From the NCBI GenBank assembly GCA_963677595.1, contig OY782041.1, positions 256,001-320,000 of the forward strand: 64,000 bases of DNA, given 5' to 3'. Numbering within the stretch: position 1 is the stretch's first letter; every line of letters begins with the position of its first letter. This DNA comes from Spirochaetia bacterium (GTDB taxonomy: Bacteria; Spirochaetota; Spirochaetia; CAKZLE01). The position numbers and the translations under genes are program-made. Below the pieces are notes generated by a model. That model worked only from the letters and a program-made list of their open reading frames with translations, did no database searches and was not told the DNA's origin. This document shows, in pieces, positions 15,744 to 62,762 of this stretch.

Positions 15744-15772
15744 TTGTCTCCAAGCCCGCACTACGTTACAAT
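15744..15772 (+). promoter_or_regulatory. Sigma70 promoter upstream of the Moco-type riboswitch
   Basis: TTGTCT (15744-15749), 17 nt, TACAAT (15767-15772); AT-rich upstream region; start site would fall just before the RNA motif. Confidence 0.6.
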
Positions 15773-15878: not shown

Positions 15879-17363
15879 ATGTTTGGTAGAAGAACTCTCT
15901 CTTGCGGTATCATGATCCTGTGCTGTGTGGTCTTCCCGCTGTCCGGTCTCGAAGTCAGCGTGAACGGAAAGCCATACCAGTCCTTGCATGATACTGAACT
16001 CACAGAACTCATCTCACCCCTCCCCGCCGGGCTGGTCTCTTCGGAGTCCTCTTTGGGTATTGCTGTGTCACAGCTCATCCCCGTGATGTTCGAGGCATGG
16101 CGGATCACCATTGACGGGGTTGTTATATCGGACGACAGCCTGGCAGAACGGCTTGAGCACTCCTACCTCTTCCGGGATGCCGGGGTATGGTCCATTCAGC
16201 TCGATGACGGTCTTATATTCCAGAACACTGAGAGCTTATCGGTCGAGGGGGAAGAACTCCTCGATGATGAGCTAGAGATATGGGTCAGCTGGGAGGGCGA
16301 GGATGAGCTGAGAACCGAGATCTCAGCCTTCGCGGACCGCAATGGTATCGAGGTCACGGTGCTCCATATCCCGAACCCGGAATCCCGCCTGGTCTCCGTT
16401 CTCAGGGGTGGGGGGAACCCTCCCGACCTTATCATGTGCTCTCCCGGGAATCTCTACAGCCTCGTCGAGTCAGGGGCCCTGCAGCCCCTTCCTGCATACC
16501 TCTCGACGGGCCTGGGCCGACAGGGGCTTGACACCTTCTCCTACCAGGGAAAGCAATGGGCCCTTCCGTTCTACTATGACACTCAGCTTCTGATCTACAA
16601 CCCGGAACTCATAGACCTGCCGGGAGGATCGAGTCTCACCCTTTCCGACCTGGAGCGGGCAGTCGCTGCGCTTGTCGGGACTGTCCCGGTCCCCATGAGC
16701 TGGAATGCCTACTCCTCCTATTGGCTGATGCCCTTCCAGGCAAGCTTCGGGAAGGCGCGCCTCACCGAACCGGACGGGTCGATCATCCTTGACGATGCCC
16801 AGACTGAGGCAGCCCTCTCCTACATCGTGAAGCTCGCGCAGCAGGAATACTTCACGCCGCTCGAGCGTGATGCCATGATCTCGTTCTTCGCCTCAGGCCG
16901 TGCCGGGGTGATCTACTCGGCTTCCTACTCGATCCCCTACTTCCAGGAACTTAGGATCCCGTTCGCCGTAGCCCCGGCACTGGTCAATGACCGGACAGGC
17001 TTGCCTGTCTCCCCCATGCTCGATTACAAGGCGATCGGCCTCACCCGGCAGTCAAAGCACCCGGTCCTCGCATACCGGCTGCTCTCCTACCTCATGGGAA
17101 TCGAGGTCCAGACCCGTTTCAACCAGCAGCTCTTCAAGCTCCCGGCCAACACCTATGCACAGCAGCTGCTTGAGGAGAGCACTGCCTACTACCGGACCAT
17201 AACCGACCAGGCTTCCCACGGCCAGACAGTACCGTCGACGGCATCCTATGCAGCCTACAAGAACATCATGTGGAAGCTGCTGAGGTTCGCCCTCTCCGGG
17301 CAGCTGAGCCCTTCCGCAGTCCTGGAACAGGGAGAGCGATTACTGAAGGAGACACTGCCGTAG
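15879..17363 (+). CDS. ABC solute-binding protein (family 1, MalE-like) with extra N-terminal domain
   Basis: Start corrected to ATG 15879 directly after the riboswitch; signal peptide; PPDLIM, GALQPL, WALPFYYDTQLLIYNPELI, FASGRAGVI; ~130 aa extra region before the SBP domain. Confidence 0.8.
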   Translation: MFGRRTLSCGIMILCCVVFPLSGLEVSVNGKPYQSLHDTELTELISPLPAGLVSSESSLGIAVSQLIPVMFEAWRITIDGVVISDDSLAERLEHSYLFRDAGVWSIQLDDGLIFQNTESLSVEGEELLDDELEIWVSWEGEDELRTEISAFADRNGIEVTVLHIPNPESRLVSVLRGGGNPPDLIMCSPGNLYSLVESGALQPLPAYLSTGLGRQGLDTFSYQGKQWALPFYYDTQLLIYNPELIDLPGGSSLTLSDLERAVAALVGTVPVPMSWNAYSSYWLMPFQASFGKARLTEPDGSIILDDAQTEAALSYIVKLAQQEYFTPLERDAMISFFASGRAGVIYSASYSIPYFQELRIPFAVAPALVNDRTGLPVSPMLDYKAIGLTRQSKHPVLAYRLLSYLMGIEVQTRFNQQLFKLPANTYAQQLLEESTAYYRTITDQASHGQTVPSTASYAAYKNIMWKLLRFALSGQLSPSAVLEQGERLLKETLP

Positions 17364-17408: not shown

Positions 17409-18791
17409 ATGAACAAGAGATTCTTAGGCGTTCTTTTACTGATGCTGGGCATCCTGCTGCTGGCAGGCTGCACCACCACCGAAAGCGGGACTTCCGTCGA
17501 GGTGACAGCAGAGACTGAAGTCGATGCAGTCGCCCATGCGACACCGGCAGGTGAAGGGTGGCATGTGACCCTCACAGGGGTCCGGACGGACGAGCTGTGG
17601 GAATCACAGGCAGCTGCAGATCCCAAATGGCTGGAGACTGTCCAGTTCGAGAAGAAGGGGGAGCTGAGGACCTATACGGCCCTCGCCTTCTCGGAAGTGA
17701 TCGCCATGATCGACGATGCGGACGGGTCCATGCCCTATAGCTTCCAGCAGGGGGCTTGGGATGCAGGTTATGACATCACCGTGACCGCCGCGGACGGGTT
17801 TGCCGCGACCTTCAACACGGCTGACTACCCGGCAGAAGGGATCTACCTCGCAGTGACTCAGGACGGGGAGAGCACCCTCCCCATGCTCGTCGGCGATATC
17901 CCGGGGCAGATCCAGGTCAAGGACATCGTCTCCATCGAGACCTCACTCGCACCGGTGGCGCTCGAGGAGAACCAGTTCGAGTTCATCCTCGAGATCGGGG
18001 ATAAGACAGCGACCTTCACCCTTGCCGAGCTCGAGGATCATCCCTACTTCATCGAAGGTCCCGGGGAGTACAAGAACACCTATGACAACGTCTTCACCCA
18101 CGTCTGGGGCGGGGTCAAGCTCGTGGACCTCATCAGCGACGTGTTCCCGCTCACGGCTGACCAGAGTGTGACCATCATCGCCACTGACGGCTACGAGATG
18201 GACTACAGCGGGTCACAGCTGCTTGACCAGGCAGACGGGACCTGGATCCTCGCATTCATCGAAGACGGGGAGTATATGCCGGAAGACCCGGGATACATCC
18301 GCCTGGTGAAGGTCGGCCCCGACACACCCCAGATCACCGGTCACATCTCTGCACGTATGGTGAAGAAGGTGCAGATCAAGGATGTCTCCTTCACTGACTT
18401 CACCCTCTCCATCGACAGCGCTGCAGGGACCGAGGAGCTCGACCGGCAGACGATCCAGAGCGGCGTGACTTCACAGAGAACGACCGTGAACTACTTCAAC
18501 AAGAAGAGCGGGGAGACTGTCAGCTACCTGGGTCTTCCCCTGTTCGAATTCCTTGCACACTATGACGGCTACGACACGGTCACCGTCGAAGCTTCGGACA
18601 GGTACTCGATCACCCTCGCTGCAGATGAGGTAGCCGGGAACAGCGATGTCATCCTGGCCATGTACTACGGTGACGGGAGTGAGCTCTCTGAGAATGAAGC
18701 CCCCCTCATCATCGTATGGGATGCCGAAGCTGACCTCGTGCCTGCCGGCATCAAGGCAGTCAGGAGCGTGACCCGCCTCATCCTGGACTGA
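17409..18791 (+). CDS. Lipoprotein with three tandem molybdopterin-binding (sulfite-oxidase-fold-like) repeats
   Basis: Lipobox LLAGC; three repeats with [YW]xG-like, A[AST]D[GR][FY], [IY]LA..DG and V[KR]xVxxI-like motifs; no Cys besides the lipobox. Confidence 0.7.
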   Translation: MNKRFLGVLLLMLGILLLAGCTTTESGTSVEVTAETEVDAVAHATPAGEGWHVTLTGVRTDELWESQAAADPKWLETVQFEKKGELRTYTALAFSEVIAMIDDADGSMPYSFQQGAWDAGYDITVTAADGFAATFNTADYPAEGIYLAVTQDGESTLPMLVGDIPGQIQVKDIVSIETSLAPVALEENQFEFILEIGDKTATFTLAELEDHPYFIEGPGEYKNTYDNVFTHVWGGVKLVDLISDVFPLTADQSVTIIATDGYEMDYSGSQLLDQADGTWILAFIEDGEYMPEDPGYIRLVKVGPDTPQITGHISARMVKKVQIKDVSFTDFTLSIDSAAGTEELDRQTIQSGVTSQRTTVNYFNKKSGETVSYLGLPLFEFLAHYDGYDTVTVEASDRYSITLAADEVAGNSDVILAMYYGDGSELSENEAPLIIVWDAEADLVPAGIKAVRSVTRLILD

Positions 18792-18793
18792 CC

Positions 18794-20794
18794 ATGAGGA
18801 TACGACCATCGCTTCACACCAGGTGGCAGCTGCTGCTTCCGGCGGCGCTCATCGTCGCAGCTGCAGGAGTCGCCCCGTTCGCTGAAGCGGTGGTCACCTC
18901 ATTCTTCCACGACATCTACGGGCAGAGAAGCCCCGCAGGGTTCGACAACTACCGGTACCTCCTCTCAGACCGGGGCTTCTCCTACAGTCTCAGGATCAGT
19001 CTGGTCTGGGCACTAGGGAACACGGTCCTGGGGTTAGGAACTTCCCTCCTGCTGGCCTGGCGGATCTTCATGCGGGGAAGGAGGGGCAAGCTCCTCTACC
19101 TCTCCCTGGTCATCCCCTGGGCAGTCCCCGTCTATATCGCCGTCCCGGTCTGGAGGTCCTTCTTCCATGGGGACGGGGGCACCTCGCTCTTCTCCACGCT
19201 CACGGGGATCCATATAAACCTGCTCACCGACCCGATTGCGGCATTCTGCTCGACACTGTGGGTAAGCGTCTGGCTTTCGGTCCCCTTTACCGGGTTCGTC
19301 CTCCTGAGCAGCCTCAAGCGCATCCCCGGGAGCCTCAGGGAAGCCGCCATGATCGACGGGGCAGACAGCAGGCAGGTCCTGCAGTATGTCTACCTGCCGC
19401 AGATCAGGAATGCGATCGCCGTCATGTCGGTGCTGAACGTCATCAAGTTCCTGAAGGAGTTCAATGTCATCTTCCTCATGACCTCGGGCGGCCCGCCGCT
19501 GGTCTCGGGGATCACTGACCGGTTCATCATCGGGGCAACGACCACCCTCGATGTCCTGGTCTACGAGATCTTCCAGACCCGGGAGGATATAGGGATCTCA
19601 TCAGCCTATGCCGTGCTCCTCGCGGGGGTGGTCATCCTTATCATGCTCCTCTGGCTGCGGGCCCGGAAGGGGAACAGCTCACGGATCCTGCCGGCAGTGC
19701 TCACCGGTCTCGCGCAGGTACCCTTTTCCGGCATCCCGGGCATCATCCTTGCTGTTCTTTATCCGGTCAGCGGGATCGTTTCCAGGAAGGCCTTCAGGCT
19801 TACGCTCATCCTGCACGCGGGACTGACCTGCTTCATGGTCATCTCCAGGGGATTCCTGGAAGGCTTCTCCCCGGGGTTCCCCCTCGCCCTGCTGGTGTAC
19901 CTGATCATCTTCTCGAAAGACGGGGCAGCTTCCCGCCCGGTGAGGACCCCACAGGGCTTCTCACGGACTGCCACCAGACTGTTCACCCTGACCACGCTGG
20001 TCCTCTCCTGTCTGTTCATCATCGCGGCCCTGCTCATGGTGTTCATCGTCATCTGGCTGAGCTTCTCCGGCCTCGGCAGCAGCTACATAGACTCGCTCAT
20101 TCCCCCCTTCCCGACGGTTACCAACTATGTGAAGATCATCGTGGATGAGGGGATCCTCAGGCACTTCCTCAACACCCTGCTGCTCTCAGGCTCCACTGCC
20201 CTACTGCTTCCCCTCATCATCATGCCTGCTGCCTACTACCTGCTGCACCGGGGGAACAGGACCGCCTTCGGCGTCATGACCTTTCTCCAGATCCTCGGGC
20301 TCTATGGCGGTATGCACTCCCTCATCCCGCTCTACTCATTCTTCCGGCGGCTTCACTTGATCGACTCGTACATCCCGCTCGTCATGATCTACCTCAACCA
20401 CGCGATCCCCTCTGCCTTGTTCACGACGCTCGCCTATATGGAGAAGATCCCTGCTTCCTTCGAGGACCAGGCGCGCCTCGAGGGGGTAAGCGCGTTCCAG
20501 TACCTTCGGCTGATCCTCTTCCCGGTCAGTCTCCCGATCATCGGGGTGAACATGGTCCTGGCATTCATCGCAGCATGGAACGGGTTCATGGCTCCCCTGC
20601 TCTTCCTCAACACGGAGGGCAGCTTCCCCATCAGCGTCAAGCTCTTCTCCCTCGTGGGAAATCTCGCGTCAGGCTTCCCGAAGTGGAATCTCTTCGCCGC
20701 TGCATCGCTCATCAACTGCCTGATCCTCTCAGTGCTCCTCCACCGGGTACGTAAACCGATCAATGACAGCAGTCTGCAGTCCATCATGGAATGA
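18794..20794 (+). CDS. Fused MalF+MalG-type carbohydrate (CUT1) ABC permease
   Basis: 666 aa with two EAA loops (LREAAMIDGAD; FEDQARLEGVS), GFDNYRYLL, FIAAWNGF. Confidence 0.85.
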   Translation: MRIRPSLHTRWQLLLPAALIVAAAGVAPFAEAVVTSFFHDIYGQRSPAGFDNYRYLLSDRGFSYSLRISLVWALGNTVLGLGTSLLLAWRIFMRGRRGKLLYLSLVIPWAVPVYIAVPVWRSFFHGDGGTSLFSTLTGIHINLLTDPIAAFCSTLWVSVWLSVPFTGFVLLSSLKRIPGSLREAAMIDGADSRQVLQYVYLPQIRNAIAVMSVLNVIKFLKEFNVIFLMTSGGPPLVSGITDRFIIGATTTLDVLVYEIFQTREDIGISSAYAVLLAGVVILIMLLWLRARKGNSSRILPAVLTGLAQVPFSGIPGIILAVLYPVSGIVSRKAFRLTLILHAGLTCFMVISRGFLEGFSPGFPLALLVYLIIFSKDGAASRPVRTPQGFSRTATRLFTLTTLVLSCLFIIAALLMVFIVIWLSFSGLGSSYIDSLIPPFPTVTNYVKIIVDEGILRHFLNTLLLSGSTALLLPLIIMPAAYYLLHRGNRTAFGVMTFLQILGLYGGMHSLIPLYSFFRRLHLIDSYIPLVMIYLNHAIPSALFTTLAYMEKIPASFEDQARLEGVSAFQYLRLILFPVSLPIIGVNMVLAFIAAWNGFMAPLLFLNTEGSFPISVKLFSLVGNLASGFPKWNLFAAASLINCLILSVLLHRVRKPINDSSLQSIME

Positions 20795-45656: not shown

Positions 45657-45743
45657 GATCCATATCTTTGGATTGAGCTCCAAAGGATGAAATATCCTAA
45701 AATAGTCCAAAAAAAATAAAAATAATCAAAGATTTCTCCCATA

Positions 45744-45891
45744 TTTCAGCGTACTCTTGTCCTATACCAAGGGGAAAGAGGTGAGAATCCTCTGCGAGCC
45801 CGTCACTGTGAACATGGGGATGCATGCAATTCATCCAAGCCATGTAAGCCAGGTTACCTTGAGAAAACAGAGAAGCTTCGTGGATCAAGCT
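45744..45891 (+). ncRNA. Cobalamin riboswitch (short form) with kissing-loop hairpin
   Basis: AAGGGGAA, AGAGG-TGAGAAT-CCTCT T-loop stem, CACTGTGA, B12 box TAAGCCAGGTTACCT; downstream AGCTT-CGTGGATC-AAGCT hairpin whose TTCGTGGA can pair with TCTGCGAG. Confidence 0.82.
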
Positions 45892-49735: not shown

Positions 49736-51208
<1,473 letters not shown>

Positions 51209-52585
51209 TTATCGCTCCCACGGAGGATGCACGTTCCTATGTCCCTCTGTAGGGATCACAGGCGCCTTGATGATCTCAGCCTCAGGTTCCCCTGCTGCAC
51301 GCATATGCGCAAGCAGGCGCTTCCCCATTACTTCTGTGATGTCTTCATACCCTTCCATACCGATGAGATTTGTCAATTCATAAGGATCTGATTCAAGATC
51401 ATATAGAGATTCTTCATAATACGTCCCGGCATAGGGAGTACTCTCTTTGGCCATCTCATTGTTGGAGACACAGTATTTCCATCGATCAGTCCGTACAGCC
51501 CTGCCGATCTGTGATTCGCTGATCTGAATATAGATGTCATCAGGCCAGGCAGGGTCTTCATGCCTGATCAGTGGCATAGCAGATCTCCCGCTCATTGTCT
51601 CGGGGACTTCAATCCCTGCTGCTTCGAGAAGAGTCGGGGCAATATCAATGATACTCGTGAGAGCTTTTATCCTTCCCCCATGTTCAAACCCAGGACCACG
51701 TGCGGCTACAGGAATACGTATCGAACTCTCATGACATGAGCGTTTGTATTCATCATTGCGAGTTTTAAAATGGCATCCATGATCAGACACAAAGAGTACT
51801 ATGGTGTTCTCAAGAAGCTCAATACTTTTCAGGGTATCCATGATCCGGCCGAATGCTTCATCCAGCCGCTTGATCATTCCATAGTATCCACCAATCTGTT
51901 GATATGCGTTCCCCCCTAGGGATGCAAGATCAGGAGGCAGCCATCTACCGGTATATTTCTCAGCATATCCATCAGGTGCTGGGAAATCATCCCGATGATT
52001 CTGAAAATGAGGTTCCAGGTATGATACACAAAGGAAGAATTGTTCTTGCTTGTGGTCCTCTAAGAATCGTACTGCAGCATCGGTATAGGCATCAGCCCGA
52101 TATCCTGGGAGAAAGACCTTCTTATTCTCATTATCAAATAAGACTGTATGATAGGCATCTGAGATGAATTCCGGCAAATCCGATGCGAGCCAATACTCAT
52201 ACCCCCCTCTCCGTTCTTCCGGGACGGGTTGCTGTCCACCATAGAACCCGGGATCTACTCCACCAAGATGCCACTTCCCGATATACCCGGTGCGGTACCC
52301 TTCTTTTCCGAATAGGGTGGCAAGCGTTTGGGCATCATCCTGTAATGGTATGCCATTCTGGTACACCCCTGTCTCTGTCGCATATAAGCCGGTCTGCAAG
52401 CAGGACCTTGCAGGACCGCATAACGGCTGGCACGTAAACGCATTATAGAAATGGGTCCCTTCCTGGGCTATCCTGTCGAAGTTTGGCATCAGATCCAGGG
52501 GGTTCCCATAGAGACTCGAGGCATCCCAACGATGCTGATCAGTGAAGAAAATGATTACATTCGGTCTGTTCGTAGTAGTATGCAT
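51209..52585 (-). CDS. Cys-type formylglycine-dependent sulfatase
   Basis: PNVIIFFTDQHR, CGPARSCLQTG (CxPxR), GKWHLG, SDHG, YDLESDPYE. Confidence 0.93.
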   Translation of the reverse strand: MHTTTNRPNVIIFFTDQHRWDASSLYGNPLDLMPNFDRIAQEGTHFYNAFTCQPLCGPARSCLQTGLYATETGVYQNGIPLQDDAQTLATLFGKEGYRTGYIGKWHLGGVDPGFYGGQQPVPEERRGGYEYWLASDLPEFISDAYHTVLFDNENKKVFLPGYRADAYTDAAVRFLEDHKQEQFFLCVSYLEPHFQNHRDDFPAPDGYAEKYTGRWLPPDLASLGGNAYQQIGGYYGMIKRLDEAFGRIMDTLKSIELLENTIVLFVSDHGCHFKTRNDEYKRSCHESSIRIPVAARGPGFEHGGRIKALTSIIDIAPTLLEAAGIEVPETMSGRSAMPLIRHEDPAWPDDIYIQISESQIGRAVRTDRWKYCVSNNEMAKESTPYAGTYYEESLYDLESDPYELTNLIGMEGYEDITEVMGKRLLAHMRAAGEPEAEIIKAPVIPTEGHRNVHPPWER

Positions 52586-52642
52586 AACAACTTCCTATAT
52601 CTTATTGGATACGAGAGCATATCCCACATAAATTCCCAGGAT

Positions 52643-53419
52643 TCACAGCATGAACTGTTTGATATATTTCTGTGTTAATTGAATATATTTTTTCCTATGT
52701 TCATCCGGAGATGCCCAGAAAGGCCCATGTGGTTCGATTACAACATATTCGTCATACTCATGATGGTATAGGATGCTCATGAACTTACCCCATTCTAGGG
52801 TATCCATACCTGGAGGTGGTTCCAGTTCACCTGCCGGCAATTGGGTGAGTCCCTTAACGTGGAAATGTGTGAGTTTATCACCATATCGGTATAGGACATC
52901 ATATGGATCAGCCTTCACATTACGAATGATACCGACAGGGTCCAGCTTCAATCCTATATCCGGGATCATACGATACGTCTGCTGCAAAAGGGCTTCAGAC
53001 GTGATATAGCTCCCTTTATGCCCGAGATAGACCGAAAGCACCAACTGATATGATTCAGCAAGATCCTTCCATGCATTATATTTGGCTGCAAGATACCCTG
53101 GCTTATCCTCAACATCAGGCTCACCTGCCCCGGTAAAGAAATTCACAGCGTTGATGTCGGAAGCGAACTTCATAGCAGTTTTTATGATCTCTGCATCTGC
53201 CCCTTCATTGATATCCGAAAGGCCTACTGCCCATACGCCGAGCGCTGCTACTTCTATCTCGTATCGCTCAAAAATAGCTCGAACTTCTTCAGCATTATCA
53301 AAATCTTCTGCTTTTGGCTCATAGATCATCAACTCAATCCCGTCGATGTGGTGTTGTTTTGCAAATGCTGCCCACATCTCAAGATCACTCTTTAAATCAG
53401 CAATGAATGCAAGTTTCAT
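52643..53419 (-). CDS. Sugar phosphate isomerase/epimerase TIM-barrel protein (AP2-like)
   Basis: DGIEL, GLKLDP, HFHVKG, PGMDTLEW, VVIEPH. Confidence 0.8.
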   Translation of the reverse strand: MKLAFIADLKSDLEMWAAFAKQHHIDGIELMIYEPKAEDFDNAEEVRAIFERYEIEVAALGVWAVGLSDINEGADAEIIKTAMKFASDINAVNFFTGAGEPDVEDKPGYLAAKYNAWKDLAESYQLVLSVYLGHKGSYITSEALLQQTYRMIPDIGLKLDPVGIIRNVKADPYDVLYRYGDKLTHFHVKGLTQLPAGELEPPPGMDTLEWGKFMSILYHHEYDEYVVIEPHGPFWASPDEHRKKYIQLTQKYIKQFML

Positions 53420-53443
53420 CAGAATCTCCCTTTATAGTATTTC

Positions 53444-54487
53444 CTAATTGAGTACTTCGACCCAGCCATGCTCCCTGTTGGAACGCCGTGCAGCTTCACA
53501 TACCTGGATGACTGCTAGCCCGTCTTTACCACTCTGGGCAGAGTTATCCGCATTCCGTAAGCTTTCTATGATGGTCTTATGATGGGTATACCCGAAAAAA
53601 GATTTAGCGACATCAGGATAATGCCATGTATACTCCATTGAATCACTTCCACCTTTGCGTGTTGTATACGCTAACGAATGTCCAGTTTCTGGGGTAAAGA
53701 GAAAGATCGTCCCTGATGTCCCATAGATCTCAGCCTCAAACCGCTTCGTCCCGCCAATCTGAGACCATTGAATCTCATGTGATATTGTCGCACCATTACT
53801 CAACCCATATAACATCCAGGCATTTACCTCATTACCAAGCAGGTTCACCTCTTCACGTTCAATCCCTGTAACTGAAGGCTGGCTTTCTTCTTCAAACGTA
53901 AATCGGGAACATACTGTAGAAACTTCCGCACCGGTAAGAAACCGTATCAGGTCTATACCATGGGCCCCGATATCCATGAAGGACCCTCCATAAGACCCGA
54001 CACTTTCCCTCGTGTTCCCGGTAGCATTCCTAAATCGTATGAATTCAATCTCTCCGATTGTTTTTTCTGCAATCAATTTCCTTGCCATCATCGATTCATC
54101 AAAATAATGGTGCATAAAACTGGGGATAATCCTCACATGGTTATCTTGAAAAGCCTGTACAATCTTTCTTCCTTCAGCAACACTCTTCGAGAATGGTTTC
54201 TGCATGAAGACATGCTTCCCAACTTGTGCTGAAGCGATTGCAATCTCAGCATGAGCCTCGATCTTGGTGAAGATACAGACAAGATCTATATCTTCTCTGC
54301 TGAGCACTTCATAATAGTCAGTACAGTATATCTCAGCATGATAGTGTTCTTTTGCCTGTCTTGCCCGCTCCTCAATCAGATCACAGGCTACAATGAACTC
54401 TGCATGCTCTACTTTTGCCAATGCTGGCATATGATAATCATTTGCTATATTCCCGCAGCCTATAACGGCATATCTAATATTCTTCAT
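53444..54487 (-). CDS. Gfo/Idh/MocA oxidoreductase
   Basis: VIGCGNIA, GKHVFMQKP, GGSFMDIGAHGID. Confidence 0.92.
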   Translation of the reverse strand: MKNIRYAVIGCGNIANDYHMPALAKVEHAEFIVACDLIEERARQAKEHYHAEIYCTDYYEVLSREDIDLVCIFTKIEAHAEIAIASAQVGKHVFMQKPFSKSVAEGRKIVQAFQDNHVRIIPSFMHHYFDESMMARKLIAEKTIGEIEFIRFRNATGNTRESVGSYGGSFMDIGAHGIDLIRFLTGAEVSTVCSRFTFEEESQPSVTGIEREEVNLLGNEVNAWMLYGLSNGATISHEIQWSQIGGTKRFEAEIYGTSGTIFLFTPETGHSLAYTTRKGGSDSMEYTWHYPDVAKSFFGYTHHKTIIESLRNADNSAQSGKDGLAVIQVCEAARRSNREHGWVEVLN

Positions 54488-54498
54488 CTTTTCTTCTC

Positions 54499-55323
54499 CT
54501 ACCTGCTGATGTTTCCCATGCTTCCAAGACCTTTATCCATTGAGGGCTTCACCGAGAAGTAGAACACTATCAACGGGATCAGATAGATAAAGCAGATAGC
54601 GGCCAATAACGAATAGTCGATCTCTCCCGGATCTGTACCAAACGCTGAAAACAATCCAACGGATATCGGGTATTTTGATTTTGAACTAATAAGAATCAAC
54701 GGCATGAGGAACTGACTCCATGAGGACATGAATGACATCATACTCACTGTTGCCAACCCAGGTCTCATCAAGGGGAAGATGATTGAGAAGAACCGTTTCA
54801 GCTTAGAAGCCCCTTCAATCATAGCTGCCTCTTCTATCTCCATGGGTATATTGTCAATAGAACCTTTCATGATCCAGAGATTCAATGGGGTAGCTAACCC
54901 GACAAAGACAAGTACCAGGCCAGAATGTGTATCCATAAGGTTCATCATCAGCATCATACTGAATAGGGGGACCACAAGCAACGTATTCGGGATAATCCTG
55001 CTGAGAAGAATCCCATACATAAGCGTCCCTTTCCCTTTGAATGCCATGCGAGAAAGTGCATACCCGGCAAACCCCGATGTCGAGACTGCGAGAACAACCG
55101 TCGTCAAGGAAATGAATAGACTGTTCTTGATCCACTGGAATACTTCACCGGTAAACAGCGCTTCAAAGCTCTTGAATGTCGGCTCTTTTGGGATCTGGAC
55201 GGAGAGATTTGCTGCCGGATGAATAGATGCAAAAATGATCCAGGTATAGGGAGCCAGTATAATAACCAGAGTTACTCCAAATATGAAATATATGATAGTT
55301 TTTTTTATCAGACTAAATTTCAA
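54499..55323 (-). CDS. Carbohydrate ABC permease (MalG-like)
   Basis: IPMEIEEAAMIEGAS EAA loop, FMSSWSQF. Confidence 0.92.
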   Translation of the reverse strand: MKFSLIKKTIIYFIFGVTLVIILAPYTWIIFASIHPAANLSVQIPKEPTFKSFEALFTGEVFQWIKNSLFISLTTVVLAVSTSGFAGYALSRMAFKGKGTLMYGILLSRIIPNTLLVVPLFSMMLMMNLMDTHSGLVLVFVGLATPLNLWIMKGSIDNIPMEIEEAAMIEGASKLKRFFSIIFPLMRPGLATVSMMSFMSSWSQFLMPLILISSKSKYPISVGLFSAFGTDPGEIDYSLLAAICFIYLIPLIVFYFSVKPSMDKGLGSMGNISR

Positions 55324-56182
55324 CTCTCATACTCCTTATGTAGAACATGCCAAGCAAAAGTGAAATAATAAGAATGATAGTACTAACTGCTCCTGCATAC
55401 CCTAACTGCATATCCTGGAATGCATTATTGTATATAAAAATCGTGAAGACCTCTGTTTTCCCCATAGGCCCTCCCCCTGTCAGCCCATAGATCATATCGA
55501 AGGCTAACAAGGTACTGAACGTACTCACAAGCAACGTCACGAGAATACTGTATTTAATCATTGGCAGCTTGATATGCAAAAGTGTCTGCAGGGTATTGGT
55601 TCCATCAATCTTTGCTGCTTCATAGACACTGACCGGGATATCGGATAGTGCTGAAGAGAGAAGCAGGTAAGCCATCGCTGTCCCACGCGTCCAGTTGACC
55701 AACAGGATGCACATCAGGGGATGTACCTTCAGCCAATCCACAGGATCGTGCCCAAAGAACCCGATGAAGGTGTTAAGCCAACCATACGTTCCATCGAAGA
55801 CGCTGCGCCACATATAGGCAGCGACTAATCCAGGTGTTAACCAGGCTATCAACAACGCAGCTGACACAAGCCCCTTGAACCTTATCTCTTTAAGCCGTAG
55901 AAGATTCGCAAATAAGAATCCGAAAACCAGATGTCCAGAAATGGCTGCAAAGACGAATGATAATGTCACTTTTATGCTGTTCAAGAATGCTACATCTTTG
56001 AACAGACGTTTATAGTTTGCCAATCCAATGAATTTTGTCATCTCACCTGCTGGGGCCCAAAGGTTAAAATTGGTGAACCCCATGATGATGGTCCAAATAA
56101 ATGGGAAAGCAAACAACGCCACCATCAGCAATAAAGATGGCGCAAGTAATCCAATAAATGTTCGCTTTTTCTCAATACTCAC
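55313..56182 (-). CDS. Carbohydrate ABC permease (MalF-like)
   Basis: FIGLANY, YEAAKIDG, LTGGGP. Confidence 0.92.
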   Translation of the reverse strand: MSIEKKRTFIGLLAPSLLLMVALFAFPFIWTIIMGFTNFNLWAPAGEMTKFIGLANYKRLFKDVAFLNSIKVTLSFVFAAISGHLVFGFLFANLLRLKEIRFKGLVSAALLIAWLTPGLVAAYMWRSVFDGTYGWLNTFIGFFGHDPVDWLKVHPLMCILLVNWTRGTAMAYLLLSSALSDIPVSVYEAAKIDGTNTLQTLLHIKLPMIKYSILVTLLVSTFSTLLAFDMIYGLTGGGPMGKTEVFTIFIYNNAFQDMQLGYAGAVSTIILIISLLLGMFYIRSMRVEI

Positions 56183-56205
56183 ACTATCCTCCTAGTGGAT
56201 GGGGC

Positions 56206-56238
56206 GATCACTCTGGCCGGACAACGGCCAGGGTGATC
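56206..56238 (-). other. Intergenic stem-loop after the SBP gene (mRNA stabiliser)
   Basis: GATCACTCTGGCCG-gacaa-CGGCCAGGGTGATC 14-bp stem. Confidence 0.6.
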
Positions 56239-56255
56239 TTTCTTGGTTTATAGAA

Positions 56256-57632
56256 TTAGAAAGCGATCTTTGTAATCTGATCCGCGCCTAAAGCATCTTC
56301 TGAGAGCTTTGCATAATTCTCAAGAGCTTCTTCAGCAGTCCATTCGCCTACCATAAGGTGCCCAAGCGCATCAGAGATTCTCTGCTGAGGGCCACTAGCA
56401 TATCCGGGATAGATTCCTGGGCTCAGGTATGTATAGTCCAGCCATGTGCTGATGTCTGATATGAATGCATTCGACTGATAGTTAGGGTTCTCAATTACAT
56501 CAGTTCGTGTGCCAACCTGACCTTTTGCAGCATTGAAGCTTGCCTGCCTGTCAGCTGCTGTCATGAATTCGAGGAATTCATATGCCAGGTCAGGATTCTT
56601 TGATTTTGCCGAGATAGTATAGGCCCATCCACCGGACTGGGTAACATAGTCCTCCCCACGGACACTTGAACCAGGTTCCATTGCCGGCATCTTCACATAC
56701 CCTACGACATCTTCCAGGTTAGGGATCTCATAGCTCTTGCCTTTACCCCAATAAGAAATGTATCCCCAGGGACCATAGCTGCTGATTGCGCCACTTCCAT
56801 CTGCGAAAGCCTGGTATGCCCATTCATCAGCGCTTGCACCCACTCCATGGACTGGATCGATCAACCCTTTTGCTGCTAACTCTTCATAGAATTTAAACGT
56901 ATCATACAGGGGTTTGCTGGAAACGATCCACTTGCCGGTTGATTCATCCATCAGTGTACCGCCTGCGCCATGCAGCAAGAGGTTGAACCTGGTGAACATA
57001 ACCTGGATCCCAGCTTCCTTTCCACCGATGTACAGCAGGGGGGTTACCGTATCAGGGAAGGCTTCCTTGATCTTCACAGCAGCATCGATGATATCCTGCC
57101 AGCTTTTCGGGTTCCAGTCAGCACTCATTCCAGCTTGCACAAACAAGTCTTTTCGGTAGTAGAGAGGGACTGCTGCTGTCTGGAAAGGAATCATATAGGT
57201 ATGTCCGTCAAACCCCATCTTATCTGCAATAGGTTTGAACGTGTATTCCCAAGTATCCGATGTTTTCAGGTAATCATCCAACGGTAACAGGTAACCAGCC
57301 CTCATATAATTCTGGCCTCGCCCAACTTCAACGACAGTCACATCAGCTGCCGTCCCTGATCTCCATAACAAAGTCTTTTTTGTTGCATATTCACCGGAAG
57401 TACCGCCAACGTTGTCCCAATCGACATGAACCGGGGTCCCTTTATCTGCCATCATCTGCTCGAAGTCTGCTATCTCTGCTTCAAGAATCTCCGGGGGAAC
57501 AGGGTTTGTACCTAAATTCATAAAAGAGATCGTAGGAGTCGTATCCTCTTCCTGTCCTCCATTTGCCCATACAGTAAAGCTAACTGCAATCAGCAATACA
57601 AGGATCATACATCGTCTTAGTTTCTTTCGCAT
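56256..57632 (-). CDS. Sugar ABC solute-binding protein
   Basis: Signal VWANGGQEE; LLPLDDY, LYYRKDLF, PKSWQDI, GGWAYTIS. Confidence 0.92.
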   Translation of the reverse strand: MRKKLRRCMILVLLIAVSFTVWANGGQEEDTTPTISFMNLGTNPVPPEILEAEIADFEQMMADKGTPVHVDWDNVGGTSGEYATKKTLLWRSGTAADVTVVEVGRGQNYMRAGYLLPLDDYLKTSDTWEYTFKPIADKMGFDGHTYMIPFQTAAVPLYYRKDLFVQAGMSADWNPKSWQDIIDAAVKIKEAFPDTVTPLLYIGGKEAGIQVMFTRFNLLLHGAGGTLMDESTGKWIVSSKPLYDTFKFYEELAAKGLIDPVHGVGASADEWAYQAFADGSGAISSYGPWGYISYWGKGKSYEIPNLEDVVGYVKMPAMEPGSSVRGEDYVTQSGGWAYTISAKSKNPDLAYEFLEFMTAADRQASFNAAKGQVGTRTDVIENPNYQSNAFISDISTWLDYTYLSPGIYPGYASGPQQRISDALGHLMVGEWTAEEALENYAKLSEDALGADQITKIAF

Positions 57633-57691
57633 AATTTACTCCTTTTTGTTTATCTTCAACTGGCGCCCTTGTGCATTTGATGTTCAAGTGG

Positions 57692-58948
57692 TTAAAAAGT
57701 AGGACTCATTACCCTGATTTCCTTAGAGTTTATTTCAAGTTCCGGACCTTTGAAAAACTCTTTCTGAATCGGGATAACTGCACCTCGTGCACCAGCATAC
57801 GAATCGTCTAGACTTGCATATTCAACTATCAGATCCTCTCTGAGAATAGGTTGAACATGTTTCTCTATGGTATCTTTGACAAGCTTGAGAAAGCTCTCTC
57901 CACAGGAGACAATACTTCCTCCGATCAAGATGGTATGGGATTCAAGAATGGTAATCAGGTTCGAGATCCCAATACCCAGGTAACGAGCAGCCTCTTCGAG
58001 AACAGGACAGACAACAGGATCGCCTTCTTTATAAAGGCTATAGATTTCCTCTATTGAAATACCTCCATCATCACCAGATCTCTTCTCCTGCAATCGATAG
58101 GCATCAATCACATTCTTGATTACGCCTCTTTCTGACGCATAGGTTTCCAAACAGCCGGAGTTGCCACAAATACACGTTTTCCCATGGCTCTCAACTTTCT
58201 GATGGCTGATAGATCCAGCATTCCCGAACCTTCCACTAATCAGTTCCCCGCTCTGGAAGATAGCGGCGCCAATACCTTCATTGAAAGCAATATATAACAG
58301 GTCATCAGTATCGATGCTTGCATGATGTCCAAACTCGATCTCGGCCAATGCCCTGCTGTCCGTGTCATTAACCAACTGCACCGGCACATGAAAACGCTTT
58401 TGAAACGGATCTATGATAGGAACATTCTTCCAATTCAAGATCCTGGGCGTCATCAAGGAGATCCCATGCACCTGATCGATAAAACCCGAAATAGAGACGC
58501 CAATACCTATGAGTTTTCTCCGATGCCTAGTGTTTGCATTGTTAAGGACTTCATCAACGGCACGTAAGATCATTTCCATGATCAAGGGAGATTCACTTCC
58601 TGTATCAATCTTGAAGCTCTTTCTTTCGATAATATTATCAGCCAGGTCGACAGCAACAATACGTATTCTTGGAATCTCGATATCGACGCCTATAGCGATC
58701 CTGGCATCAGTCTTAAGCTTATAGAGGTCAGGCCTTCTTCCTCCGATAGAATCTCCTTTTCCAATTATCTCGATATAATCATCCTGCAGCAGTTCTTTCA
58801 GTATCTTGGTTACAGTCGGCTTACTGATTCCCGACCCCATCACGATATTATCTACTGATAATGAATCTTGCTGCTTTAACAGCTTGAAAACGATGTACTT
58901 GTTGATCCGTGGGAGAAATTGGCTTTTATTATAGACTCTCTTTTGCAT
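57692..58948 (-). CDS. ROK family transcriptional repressor
   Basis: N-terminal HTH (ISKPTVTKIL), GGRRP, VNDTD, CICGNSGCLE. Confidence 0.92.
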   Translation of the reverse strand: MQKRVYNKSQFLPRINKYIVFKLLKQQDSLSVDNIVMGSGISKPTVTKILKELLQDDYIEIIGKGDSIGGRRPDLYKLKTDARIAIGVDIEIPRIRIVAVDLADNIIERKSFKIDTGSESPLIMEMILRAVDEVLNNANTRHRRKLIGIGVSISGFIDQVHGISLMTPRILNWKNVPIIDPFQKRFHVPVQLVNDTDSRALAEIEFGHHASIDTDDLLYIAFNEGIGAAIFQSGELISGRFGNAGSISHQKVESHGKTCICGNSGCLETYASERGVIKNVIDAYRLQEKRSGDDGGISIEEIYSLYKEGDPVVCPVLEEAARYLGIGISNLITILESHTILIGGSIVSCGESFLKLVKDTIEKHVQPILREDLIVEYASLDDSYAGARGAVIPIQKEFFKGPELEINSKEIRVMSPTF

Positions 58949-58965
58949 GCTACCCTTCCTGTAAA

Positions 58966-58994
58966 TACTTTACCTAAACTTATTGACTTAAGTA
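58966..58994. promoter_or_regulatory. Candidate ROK operator 1
   Basis: TACTT-N19-AAGTA upstream of the ROK gene; same layout recurs at 60115. Confidence 0.6.
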
Positions 58995-59054
58995 GGTATA
59001 CGATAATACACCTAATCCCCTACGTCAACATGTTCCCAAAGTGTTACCAGGCAC

Positions 59055-60059
59055 CTACCTTACCAGGACTGCCTTCTCCCTGAATTTTTCTATACAGGCT
59101 ATTGCCTGTAATCCATCTAAACCATTACATGGAGGGACGGTATCCTGCATGATGCAATCTATGAACTCCTGATGTTGCCTCAAACCCATCGGGATATCCT
59201 TCAATTCAGGCTTCTTCATCTCTCCATTCTTCATACACACTGCCAACGTCCCATATCCTGAACGGAGGAACGCACTCCCCTCTTCTCCATGAATCTCAAG
59301 CCAGAATCTGTTACAGTATGCGACCTGGGTCCAGCTCATCTCATGGGAGACCAGAGCCCCAGTCTCCAACCGGTATAATGCATGGGCATAGTCCTCATTA
59401 TCGGGATGGATCACTTCACCGAGTACATACCGTTCAGAAAGGATCTGTCTGGTACTGCAGGAGATTACCTCTTCAATAGCACCAAGCAGATACTGTATCA
59501 GGTCCACTCCATGAACACCGATATCGATCATAACCCCACCCTTACCACACAATCCGCTGTCATACTGCCAGGAAGAGTAATCAGATCCAGGAATTGCATT
59601 CCTGATACGTACCGAATGGATAGTTCCCAAACCGCCATCCTGCAGAAAATCCCTTATCCACCGAGATTCTTCAAAATATCGATGCATATAACTCTGGAAC
59701 AGTTTCACCCCATTACGTTCAGCAGCTTCAATCATATCAGTACATTCTTGAGAGGACGTAGCCATAGGTTTCTGTACGAATATATGCTTCCCAGCTGCAG
59801 CTGCAGCAATGGTCATCTCTTTATGCAGATAGTTTGGGGTCAATATGCATACTGCATCAATAGCCGGATCCAAGAGGAGTTCATGATAATCGGCACACCA
59901 GCCAGCATCAACGCCTGCTGCTGCCTCAGCCTTTGCCGTATCAACATCACAATATGTCGAGATATGAGCCTCAGGAATCAACCGTAACGCATTAATATGA
60001 TAACTACTGATCGACCCGCATCCGATGATTCCTATGTTTACTCTCTTACCCTTCTGCAT
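59055..60059 (-). CDS. Gfo/Idh/MocA oxidoreductase
   Basis: IIGCGSIS, TPNYLH, GKHIFVQKP, GGVMIDIGVHGVD. Confidence 0.92.
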   Translation of the reverse strand: MQKGKRVNIGIIGCGSISSYHINALRLIPEAHISTYCDVDTAKAEAAAGVDAGWCADYHELLLDPAIDAVCILTPNYLHKEMTIAAAAAGKHIFVQKPMATSSQECTDMIEAAERNGVKLFQSYMHRYFEESRWIRDFLQDGGLGTIHSVRIRNAIPGSDYSSWQYDSGLCGKGGVMIDIGVHGVDLIQYLLGAIEEVISCSTRQILSERYVLGEVIHPDNEDYAHALYRLETGALVSHEMSWTQVAYCNRFWLEIHGEEGSAFLRSGYGTLAVCMKNGEMKKPELKDIPMGLRQHQEFIDCIMQDTVPPCNGLDGLQAIACIEKFREKAVLVR

Positions 60060-60114
60060 AGCTTCTCCCCTGCAACTTGAACGTAGTATACCATCACTTT
60101 CTATTTAATGCAAA

Positions 60115-60143
60115 TACTTTTTTATATGCCTTTTACTAAAGTT
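60115..60143. promoter_or_regulatory. Candidate ROK operator 2
   Basis: TACTT-N19-AAGTT in the divergent intergenic region; shares AAATACTTT and ACT.AAGT with operator 1. Confidence 0.55.
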
Positions 60144-60293
60144 CTTTTATTTTAAAGAGATCTACGTTAGAATATAACTCAGGCAATACACAGCGGTGTA
60201 TTCTTGCGGCAAGAGGTTAGAACCATATTGCATCGATAGCTGCCCCAAAGAACTATACGCTATTGATTATTATATCCTACAGGAGGAAGAACC

Positions 60294-61328
60294 ATGAAGG
60301 CATTAGTTTTGCATAAATCCTTGGAGTTATCGATTGAGGATTTACCACTATACAAAGACCTGGGTGATAATGACATACGGATACGAATCCGAAACGTCGG
60401 TATTTGCGGCAGTGATATCCATTACGTTACCCATGGAGCCATCGGAGACTATGTCGTGAGAGCCCCCATGGTCTTAGGCCATGAAGCTTCTGGGGAAGTG
60501 ATAGAAATTGGGGAACAGGTAACATCACTACAAGTAGGCGATAGGGTGTGTATGGAACCGGGCATACCAAATCAACAGAGTAAAGAGACACGTCTTGGCT
60601 TATACAATCTGGATCCCGATGTAAAATTATGGGCAACCCCACCTGTACATGGCTGCTTATGTGAAACGGTGGTGCATCCTGAATCTCTCACATATAAGCT
60701 GCCGGATACTGTCAGTCTTGAAGAGGGGGCCATGGTTGAGCCGCTGGCAATTGGGCTGCAGGCAGTAAGCAAAGCACATATTAACCTTGGTGATATTGGA
60801 TTGGTTTTTGGGTGTGGAACTATCGGTATCATGGTTGCTCTTGCAGCTCTTGCTGGGGGCTGCAGCAAAGTCTTTATCTCTGACATCAATCAGGAAAAAT
60901 TGAAAATCTTAGAGAATTATAGGAATCTGATACCGGTTAACCCAACTCGAGAAGACCTTCTTAGTAAAGTTAACGAGGATTCTTCAAATTGGGGGGTTGA
61001 TATTGCTTTCGATGCAACCGGAGCACTCTCAATATATAAGGATATACACCGATATGTCTGTCCCGGGGGAAAGGTTGTATTAGTGGGCATCCCCCCTTCC
61101 GGATACGGGGAATTCAATATTTGTGGATTACAGGCTAAAGAAATCACCTTATCAACGGTATTCAGATATGCCCATAAGTTTGAGAAGACAATCAATCTCA
61201 TCTCCTCCGGGGATATCAACGTTAGACCGTTAATCTCTAAAATTTATCCTTTCGAGAAATGCATTGAGGCGTTCCATCATGCGGCGAACCCGGAAAATAC
61301 TGACGTGAAGATCCAGATCTCCCTTTAA
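60294..61328 (+). CDS. Zn-dependent polyol dehydrogenase (xylitol/sorbitol dehydrogenase-like)
   Basis: [44 protein letters not shown]. Confidence 0.9.
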
Positions 61329-61387
61329 GACCCTACATACACTGGTATGGATTTGGGATTGTCTATACCATCTTCATCAGGGATTAC

Positions 61388-61413
61388 CCCAATGGGACGT
61401 ATGTCCCATTGGG
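61388..61413. terminator. Hairpin between convergent genes near the island's right edge
   Basis: CCCAATGGGAC-gtat-GTCCCATTGGG perfect 11-bp stem. Confidence 0.6.
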
Positions 61414-61472
61414 TATGCGTCTTTTCAGGTTCCCATAGTAGTATGTAAACCCCTTTACAGTTGGGAGGTTCC

Positions 61473-62762
61473 CTACAAGCTTGAGATCATCCCCTCTGCC
61501 GCCCTGATGCCGCTCGCCCAGGCTGCGGTGATGCCCCGGCTCGTGCCGGCACCGTCACCTGCCAGGTATACCCCGTCTGCCACCTTGAAGTGTTTGTCGA
61601 GGTAGGTCGGTTTGTTCGCATAGAGCTTGATCTCAGGGTAATACATGATCGTCGATGGATGGAGGATCCCCGGCACGATGGTATCGAGGCGCTTCATCGC
61701 CTTCCAGATGCTCCGGAGGATCCTCGAGGGCATAGCCAGGGAGATGTCTCCCGGGCAGCAGCTGCGCAGGCTCGGCTCGAAGTCATAGAGGTCGGCATTG
61801 AAGCTTGCAGCCTTGGAGCGTGAACCCATCCGGAAGTCCCCTACCCGCTGCATGAGCGGCATCCCGCCTCCCATAAGCATCGCCTGGATCCCGAGGTTCT
61901 CGGCGAACTGCTGGCCGCTGGCCAGTGGTTCGGTAAGCCCCACGGTGTTCAGCATGGCGAAGTTCACCAGGCCGTTCTCCTTCCCGTGGCTCACCGAGTA
62001 GGCATGACCGTTGACGGAGTTGTAGGGAAGGCCTGATGAGGTCTTGTAGTGCTCCTTCACGACATGGGCGTTCCCGCTGTTGGTACAGAAGGTCCGGACC
62101 TTGTCGGGGAAGTGGAACTTCGGGTCGTAGTAGTCCTTCACGATCGGGTAGTGCTCGATGCGCGTCTCTACCCGAATCCCGATATCCACGATATTGTCGA
62201 TGTAGGGGACTCCAAGGGTATCGAGGGTCTCCTGCAGGAACCTGAACCCCTGCCTTCCCGGGGCAACGAGCAGCATTCCGTAGGAGATGGTACGTTTGTT
62301 CGTCTCGATCTTCCTGGCTGCTGCGTCGATGCCTATCATCTCCTCCTCGAGAGCAAGCTCGACATCCCTGGATGAGAGTTCCTTCTGCAGCTGCTTGATC
62401 AGCTTCAGCCCCCCGTCAGTTCCGAGATGGGTCTGCTTGATCTCCAGCAGCTTCGTATCGAGCCGCTCGGCCCGGTGCTGGTAGATCCCGATCCTCGATT
62501 TCGGCAGGATGGAGGGCTTGAGGAACTCCGAGACCTTGTCGAGGTACTCCTCAGCCTGGTACTCATCCCAGTACTCCTTCGGGAACCCGATGGGATAGGT
62601 GAAGTTCATCTTGCAGTCATTGCGCATACCGCCTGATGAGTATTTGAGTTTATCGAGTATGACGATACTCTTCTGCGGGACCTTCTCGCTCAGTTCGAAG
62701 GCGGTACCCATGCCCGCCGGCCCTGAACCGATGATCACCACATCATATGAATCATGCTTCAT
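61473..62762 (-). CDS. Uncharacterised FAD-dependent oxidoreductase (COG2509-like)
   Basis: IIGSGPAG, HLGTD, DIGIRVE, VRTFCTN, VNGHA, AGDGAGTSRG. Confidence 0.82.
   Translation of the reverse strand: MKHDSYDVVIIGSGPAGMGTAFELSEKVPQKSIVILDKLKYSSGGMRNDCKMNFTYPIGFPKEYWDEYQAEEYLDKVSEFLKPSILPKSRIGIYQHRAERLDTKLLEIKQTHLGTDGGLKLIKQLQKELSSRDVELALEEEMIGIDAAARKIETNKRTISYGMLLVAPGRQGFRFLQETLDTLGVPYIDNIVDIGIRVETRIEHYPIVKDYYDPKFHFPDKVRTFCTNSGNAHVVKEHYKTSSGLPYNSVNGHAYSVSHGKENGLVNFAMLNTVGLTEPLASGQQFAENLGIQAMLMGGGMPLMQRVGDFRMGSRSKAASFNADLYDFEPSLRSCCPGDISLAMPSRILRSIWKAMKRLDTIVPGILHPSTIMYYPEIKLYANKPTYLDKHFKVADGVYLAGDGAGTSRGITAAWASGIRAAEGMISSL

Follow-up and report, generated by a model that had tools for sequence, protein, structure and literature searches.

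The SUOX fold is shared by a group of enzymes that includes MsrP/YedY, SorA, SorT, SoxC and sulfite oxidase (PF00174), and the SUOX arginine binds the phosphate of the cofactor. In sulfite oxidase a lysine is also described as contacting the cofactor (PMC10673323). The only characterised Cys-free SUOX protein is PruR (Agrobacterium, Vibrio, Klebsiella; PDB 7kos, 7kom, 7kp2, 7rkb), an exported protein of one soluble domain (about 170 aa) that lacks the Mo-ligating Cys (PMC11194511); it carries a PW motif at the Cys position, and its partner is DcpA/DTB or a kinase regulator. An Asn and a Tyr of its pocket hold the pterin ring, and the cleft is reported as too short for Moco, small pterins such as monapterin being bound (PMC11194511); Asp and Phe variants of this N-x-Y motif are described among PruR groups (PMC13259868). 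Because PruR, although Cys-free, has so short a cleft, loss of the Cys alone does not imply Moco binding.

Moco RNA motifs (RF01055) are described as preceding synthesis genes, metal transporters and enzymes, and the targets given in the main text of that account (PMC2408646) include no sugar-type importer. The same source reports that the E. coli RNA blocks translation when Moco is present, that RNAs lacking stem P3 are associated with tungsten-cofactor genes, and that in S. wolfei two P3-less RNAs lie ahead of genes called 'putative sulphite oxidase' (PMC2408646). Two kinds of importer also bear comparison. CUT1 importers (MalEFGK) pair a MalE-fold binding protein with MalF/MalG-like permeases carrying EAA loops, and MalK-type ATPases are shared between importers. 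Cobalamin uptake by BtuFCD with accessory capture lipoproteins is a riboswitch-controlled form of cofactor salvage.

The locus described here lies in a 64,000-nucleotide stretch of a Spirochaetia genome (the window) and consists of a riboswitch followed by genes for a solute-binding protein (15879..17363, 494 aa), a lipoprotein (17409..18791, 460 aa) and a fused MalF/MalG-type permease with two EAA-type loops in its sequence (18794..20794, 666 aa), all on the + strand. We propose, with a probability of about 65%, that the lipoprotein is the capture component of an ABC importer of W/Mo-molybdopterin, its role toward the ligand being putative. The operon has the MalE fold and the EAA-bearing permease in common with MalEFGK but differs in that its permease is fused, its binding protein has an extra N-terminal domain, a lipoprotein is added and no ATPase gene is present in the operon; TOBE_2-bearing ATPase candidates lie elsewhere in the genome in five of five genomes. 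The binding protein matches T. maritima MalE at E 2.7e-27 with about 20% identity, and the system stays below every NCBIfam cut-off. We compared 24 loci, namely the window, three more and 20 chosen to span families among the 51 genomes with a match. In 22 of them the genes run binding protein, lipoprotein, fused permease, including L045, where the lipoprotein is placed by its sequence match rather than by ORF picking; the other two are cut by contig ends. Other gene clusters beside the operon each occur in six of the 24 loci at most, and no catabolic, DcpA-type or kinase gene is conserved there; the operon itself contains no MsrQ or cytochrome partner. In two genomes (L044:746-6579 and L046) the operon runs into genes of cobalamin salvage (cobD/cbiB, cobS and cobU) together with a Vut_1 transporter, and in two others an AOR gene lies just upstream of it, divergently in one (L043:4008-6146, G198) and on the same strand in the other (L053:3093-4952, G060).

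The lipoprotein is acidic (75 D+E against 23 K+R) and begins with a signal peptide and lipobox motif (LAGC, Cys21; 17409..17471). An earlier note on this DNA had described three repeats of about 130 residues with AADGF, ATDGY and ASDRY cores, a sulfite-oxidase fold, no Cys beyond that of the lipobox, no Mo-ligating Cys, and export as a Sec lipoprotein rather than through Tat; all of this is borne out below. The three cores start at residues 127, 258 and 395 (spacing 131 and 137). The repetition is more than chance would give: profile-profile comparison in local mode relates domain 1 (residues 48-180, 17550..17948) to domain 3 (residues 329-460, 18393..18788) at a probability of 98.7%, domain 3 to domain 2 (residues 187-327, 17967..18389) at 96.4%, and domain 1 to domain 2 at 82%.

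Homologs were drawn from a protein search that gave 96 matches including the query; 91 near-full-length sequences were aligned and five short ones dropped. Their sources bear names in the Spirochaetales and label the proteins 'molybdopterin-dependent oxidoreductase'. C21 is the sole Cys of the window's lipoprotein, and its column holds Cys in 74 of the 91 homologs. A Cys somewhere in the mature part occurs in 43 of the 91 (25 at position 355, 11 at 352, 10 at 161); a wholly Cys-free mature part is a property of the window's copy and not of the family. By contrast, Cys is found in at most one homolog at each of the positions mapped, approximately, to the Mo-ligating Cys (about 79, 223 and 363). 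We mapped these by counting from a conserved hairpin glycine because the domain alignment to E. coli MsrP is weak (probability at most 5%). None of the 91 homologs has a strict twin-arginine motif. Two substitutions, W169Q and G398R, set the window's copy apart from its family: residue 169 (17913-17915) is Gln where 83 of 91 homologs keep Trp, and residue 398 (18600-18602) is Arg where 89 keep Gly. Perhaps this reflects relaxed selection in a genome able to make the cofactor.

Pfam PF00174 matches the middle repeat of the lipoprotein (E 8.6e-8) as well as 90 of the 91 homologs. The earlier note had proposed an AlphaFold model and a structure search as a check on the fold. In the resulting model (pLDDT 88.6), residues 184-326 (domain 2) match at Z 15.8 (rmsd 2.7, 133 aligned) and residues 331-460 (domain 3) at Z 15.7 (rmsd 2.6, 125 aligned); the matches are SUOX enzymes and PruR, the latter at Z 15.7-15.8 for these two domains, and no unrelated fold competes with them (Z 15.8 against 5.7). 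Foldseek matches the lipoprotein to SorA at E 8.7e-7. Domain 1 is probably of SUOX type as well, an assignment based on its homology to domain 3. Against solved structures, a single-sequence search with the lipoprotein returned nothing relevant and a profile search gave weak matches only (best E 0.092). Among the fold matches are the chicken C185S and C185A structures, which we take to have retained Moco; the literature searched gave no source for this.

The fold is therefore that of the sulfite-oxidase family, as had been claimed, but the best precedent is PruR and not the enzymes. R298 and K319 can be aligned with the enzymes, yet the lipoprotein has no Mo-ligating Cys, Tat signal, dimerisation domain or redox partner, and its domains are shorter and repeated; with neither Cys nor Tat signal it falls outside the SUOX enzymes. 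Unlike PruR, it has three domains and a lipid anchor, has no PW where the hairpins map, retains the Arg and Lys of SUOX enzymes in domain 2, is under Moco riboswitch control and has an ABC importer as its partner (24 loci). By size and partner it is not PruR proper, yet by analogy it is most plausibly PruR-like in binding a pterin.

The best conserved pocket is that of domain 2, where 27 of 141 columns are conserved at 95% or above (12 of 133 in domain 1 and 19 of 132 in domain 3). D260, Y262, R298, S314 and M317 are invariant in all 91 homologs, H312 is present in 90 and K319 in 74; in the hairpin T-N-S of the same domain S224 is kept in 87 and T222 in 82. The motif Asp of domains 1, 2 and 3 is found in 90, 91 and 91 homologs, respectively, and domain 3 has both D397 and Y/F399 in 91 of 91. 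Profile alignment sets D260-G-Y262 against N-D-Y of Vibrio PruR, that is, against the N-x-Y pocket motif, and sets R298 and K319 against the LRLV arginine and the WVKH lysine of SorA. The equivalent of PruR W160 is kept only in domain 1 (83 of 91 homologs). Read from the alignment, R298 and K319 point to a phosphorylated pterin rather than monapterin as the likely ligand.

The family extends well beyond these homologs, a profile search giving 796 representatives at E 0.001 or better. Among 148 wider relatives examined, the number of such domains ranges from 1 to 10 per protein, and a Cys lies near 8 of the 418 hairpin-type motifs. PKD or Ig domains are present in some of these proteins, and a protein of Methanoregulaceae (methanogen) falls in one cluster. 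Very large proteins containing as many as 10 Cys-free SUOX repeats (P0117, P0129, P0133, P0149, P0263) are possible surface capture arrays. The 'putative sulphite oxidase' genes of S. wolfei may be relatives of the lipoprotein too.

The binding protein starts at the ATG at 15879 and has a signal peptide without a lipobox and a MalE fold (pLDDT 92.4). We rejected a 539-aa reading frame from 15744 as its gene because that frame merely reads through the riboswitch. Its extra N-terminal domain (residues 21-128, 15939..16262) is probably a fourth, eroded SUOX-fold domain: hhalign relates it to lipoprotein domain 2 with a probability of 59.8% (E 8.8e-5, 103 columns), and 15 control comparisons gave 1.4% or less. 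An Atlas search with this domain gave no usable match. Four basic residues (K292, K384, K420 and K461) are invariant in the binding protein, as is Q202. When modelled as a complex, lipoprotein and binding protein scored 0.67, the best of three controls scoring 0.00; in a benchmark 116 of 157 solved complexes scored this high, as did 2 of 215 mismatched pairs, counts that apply only roughly to a model built from alignments of our own. At least 92% of the contacts recur between runs, and the partner has a pLDDT of 88. On the lipoprotein side the predicted interface comprises domain 1 residues 122-136, which include the D-G-F motif, and 165-167; on the other side it comprises residues 202-205 and 390-396 and the N-terminal domain. 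The model supports docking of lipoprotein domain 1 on the binding protein.

What looks like a conserved upstream 'peptide' ahead of the binding protein is the Moco RNA motif (RF01055; 15771..15891), well above its gathering score (53.7 bits against a cut-off of 36, E 4.6e-10) and without the P3 stem ('Tuco' type). A sigma-70-like promoter (15744..15772; TTGTCT, 17 nt, TACAAT; 9/12) ends where the riboswitch begins; it is a consensus match alone, the region having two such sites against 0.6 expected. The start codon of the binding protein lies inside the 3' end of the RF01055 match, and the gene's ribosome-binding site is overlapped by the 3' strand of P1 (15872-15876), which places it within the aptamer. 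Plain RNA folding of the leader did not recover the aptamer (z 0.14). The motif lies ahead of the operon in the window and in 20 of 23 related loci. Of the three misses, two occur at loci whose contig stops short of the operon start, and in one of these genomes the riboswitch precedes the binding-protein gene on another contig; the third (L048) genuinely fails to reach the cut-off. P3 was assessed in 13 of the 21 matches and is lacking from 12. This leader heads a sugar-type importer, unlike the targets described for Moco RNAs in the account cited above. The window's genome has two more Moco RNA copies, one of them P3-less and ahead of tupABC. The riboswitch is not confined to supply genes: in two genomes (G015 and G153) copies of it precede AOR genes.

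A second P3-less Moco RNA (L058:683-4899; G000:C1:3998682-4003263) lies ahead of a gene for an Ig-domain protein; after it come an unknown ORF, an ABC ATPase of the BtuD/heme type and a binding protein of the Peripla_BP_2 family, while moaE is close by in the opposite orientation. This is possibly a second cofactor-related uptake system. Within the window, a near-consensus promoter (15698-15571, - strand; 11/12) faces away from the operon and has a terminator-like hairpin no more than about 70 nt beyond it, possibly marking a short RNA or arising by chance. The window further contains a cobalamin riboswitch (45728-45879, 41.3 bits) and a segment (50000-62000) with negative skew and a GC content of 43-48% against about 57%, possibly an acquired island.

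We surveyed 301 genomes of the class, mostly drafts, and found lipoprotein matches in 51 (48 full or contig-cut, two partial, one weak), MoaC in 123, MoeA in 122 (one match below the cut-off being counted as absent) and AOR in 140. Strong, full-length AOR, defined as E below 1e-60 by a threshold chosen after seeing the data, is present in 46 of the 48 full carriers and in 67 of 253 non-carriers. Among strong-AOR genomes the lipoprotein occurs in 21 of 30 without MoaC and MoeA against 25 of 83 with them (14 of 19 against 19 of 61 at a completeness of at least 90%), but the enrichment vanishes when all AOR matches are counted (21 of 52 against 25 of 88, p 0.19). Stratified by family, since related genomes are not independent, it has an odds ratio of 4.5 (CMH p 0.052; p 0.022 by permutation) and depends largely on two families; within families, then, the enrichment in non-synthesisers is modest. 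None of the 144 genomes lacking both synthesis and strong AOR carries the lipoprotein, and 27 of the 48 full carriers, the window's genome included, have synthesis genes.

The non-synthesising carriers number 23 (21 full, from 10 families, and two partial), none of them a closed genome. In these we found no MoaC, no MoeA and no match at the level of MoaA (best E 1e-35, then 7e-21, against 1.7e-67 or better in seven of seven synthesising controls). TupA was found in none of the 23 but in seven of seven controls, and ModA in none of the 23 but in six of seven controls. MoaE was found in none of four tested, and the cofactor chaperone XdhC in all four; xanthine-dehydrogenase-family matches are present in 23 of 23. 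In the window's genome the synthesis and metal-uptake genes sit at four separate places, and all of them are missing from a genome of the same genus (G094; 40 contigs, 97% complete), more than a single gap in an assembly could account for. To carriers without MoaA, MoaC, MoeA, TupA and ModA, only a finished, metal-loaded cofactor would be useful. PF12849 (TupA) and PF00994 (MogA) were rejected as tests because they are too broad, matching 27 and 24 of 30 genomes, respectively; by score and length their matches in non-synthesisers look like phosphate-binding proteins and CinA. PF13531 gave moderate matches only, so WtpA is not strictly excluded, and PF02738, present in 253 of 301 genomes, was discarded as a marker for want of discrimination. 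The window genome's own MoaA is short (L060:9246-10055, a 270-aa frame) and matches positions 1-198 of 336, as do those of G063 and G195.

The operon does not account for every orphan enzyme. Seven of the 30 strong-AOR non-synthesisers have no lipoprotein match at all, and in one family (f12) xanthine-dehydrogenase-type genes are present in 21 of 21 genomes, with MoeA and the lipoprotein gene in 0 of 21 each; orphan enzymes thus exist without the operon. Neither the riboswitch nor PF00174 was found in five genomes of this family, and the riboswitch was found in 0 of 10 orphan genomes without the operon, the candidates in seven of these being scored only partly. Five f12 genomes (G012, G157, G199, G224, G268) are 99% complete and have divergent AOR genes and no MoeA. 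This family may have another cofactor route or cofactor-free enzymes.

Taken together, the Moco/Tuco riboswitch, the fixed operon, the gene pattern and the modelled docking, none of them in the earlier note, favour its proposal that a non-catalytic lipoprotein could capture or protect a labile pterin cofactor and pass it to the binding protein, and its overall reading is supported. At low cofactor levels, we envisage, the riboswitch would keep the ribosome site accessible, in the manner of E. coli moaA. Outside the cell membrane domain 2, with its pterin-stacking D-x-Y motif and SUOX-type Arg and Lys, would hold a phosphorylated, metal-loaded pterin non-covalently and hence releasably; domain 1, docked on the binding protein, would bring the captured cofactor there; and the fused permease, together with a shared ATPase of the MalK type, would carry it into the cell, where it could supply enzymes of the AOR and xanthine-dehydrogenase families. 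In the window's genome, which also makes the cofactor, the importer would be a salvage route. The logic would be that of cobalamin salvage, with a cofactor-sensing riboswitch, an importer and an extra capture protein in auxotrophs and prototrophs alike, but with a different cargo, a transporter of the MalEFG class and capture domains that stem from the fold of an enzyme family using the cofactor.

Among other readings, the least unlikely has the transporter take up a pterin without metal (cPMP, bare molybdopterin or something left by breakdown of the cofactor) that the cell completes or otherwise uses. PruR binds metal-free pterins through the same N/D-x-Y motif, the lipoprotein has no metal-ligating Cys, the riboswitch ligand in these cells may be other than the finished cofactor, and the 27 full carriers with synthesis genes could finish a precursor. 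The 23 non-synthesising carriers, however, could not do so by known routes because they lack MoeA, TupA and ModA, and MoaE as well in the four tested; we consider this reading unlikely. Only a little less credible is import of an organic substrate of W/Mo enzymes (a sugar derivative, aldehyde or nucleoside) by a merely co-regulated transporter, with the lipoprotein as an accessory or sensor. The sugar-type (MalEFG) class of binding protein and permease would suit this, as would the riboswitches ahead of AOR genes in G015 and G153 and the co-occurrence with AOR; but it gives no role to three, probably four, pterin-type domains, leaves the enrichment in non-synthesisers unexplained, and finds no catabolic gene or other frequent cluster conserved beside the operon.

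It is improbable that the operon encodes a new importer of tungstate, molybdate or a chelated metal in place of TupABC/ModABC. Metal alone would be useless without MoaA, MoaC and MoeA, TupA is kept in seven of seven synthesising carriers tested, and the binding protein has a large MalE fold, even though the P3-less riboswitch heads tupABC in the window's genome, Tup and Mod are missing from the non-synthesising carriers and the binding protein keeps its four invariant lysines. We give a fainter chance to a PruR-like pterin sensor signalling to a membrane regulator: PruR is among the top structure matches and the motif is common to both, but the constant partners are transporter genes and not a conserved DcpA-type or kinase neighbour, the W160 equivalent is confined to domain 1, and domain 2 has SUOX-like R and K. 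Faintest is the reading implied by the database label 'molybdopterin-dependent oxidoreductase', a molybdo- or tungsto-enzyme of the periplasm whose metal is bound by a residue other than Cys, for instance in the T-N-S hairpin of domain 2, where S224 and T222 are indeed well kept; the missing Cys, the lack of a twin-arginine motif in all 91 homologs and the lack of an MsrQ or cytochrome partner in the operon speak against it.

A survey of about 5900 genomes reports several hundred organisms with molybdoenzyme genes and no cofactor pathway, mostly without Mo transporters, and its main text offers synthesis genes yet to be recognised or metal-free enzymes as explanations (PMC6147048). C. elegans is described as taking up mature Moco by mechanisms that are incompletely characterised (PMC13653925). 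In the literature searched, mainly open-access articles, we found no bacterial Moco/Tuco importer, although the operon may figure in the gene lists that accompany PMC2408646 and PMC6147048. Import of the cofactor would be a third explanation for orphan molybdoenzymes, one that the operon makes testable with three genes. If it is correct, PF00174 proteins of this type should lose the 'oxidoreductase' label, and a protein that binds and stabilises Moco/Tuco would be a useful reagent. We lean slightly toward the wider claim that the operon encodes the first importer of intact W/Mo-molybdopterin to be identifiable in bacteria, and that a dead SUOX domain has become a repeated capture module (up to 10 copies in distant relatives); the labile cofactor would then be traded like a vitamin within anaerobic communities, and auxotrophs would contain many 'orphan' tungsto- and molybdoenzymes in active form.
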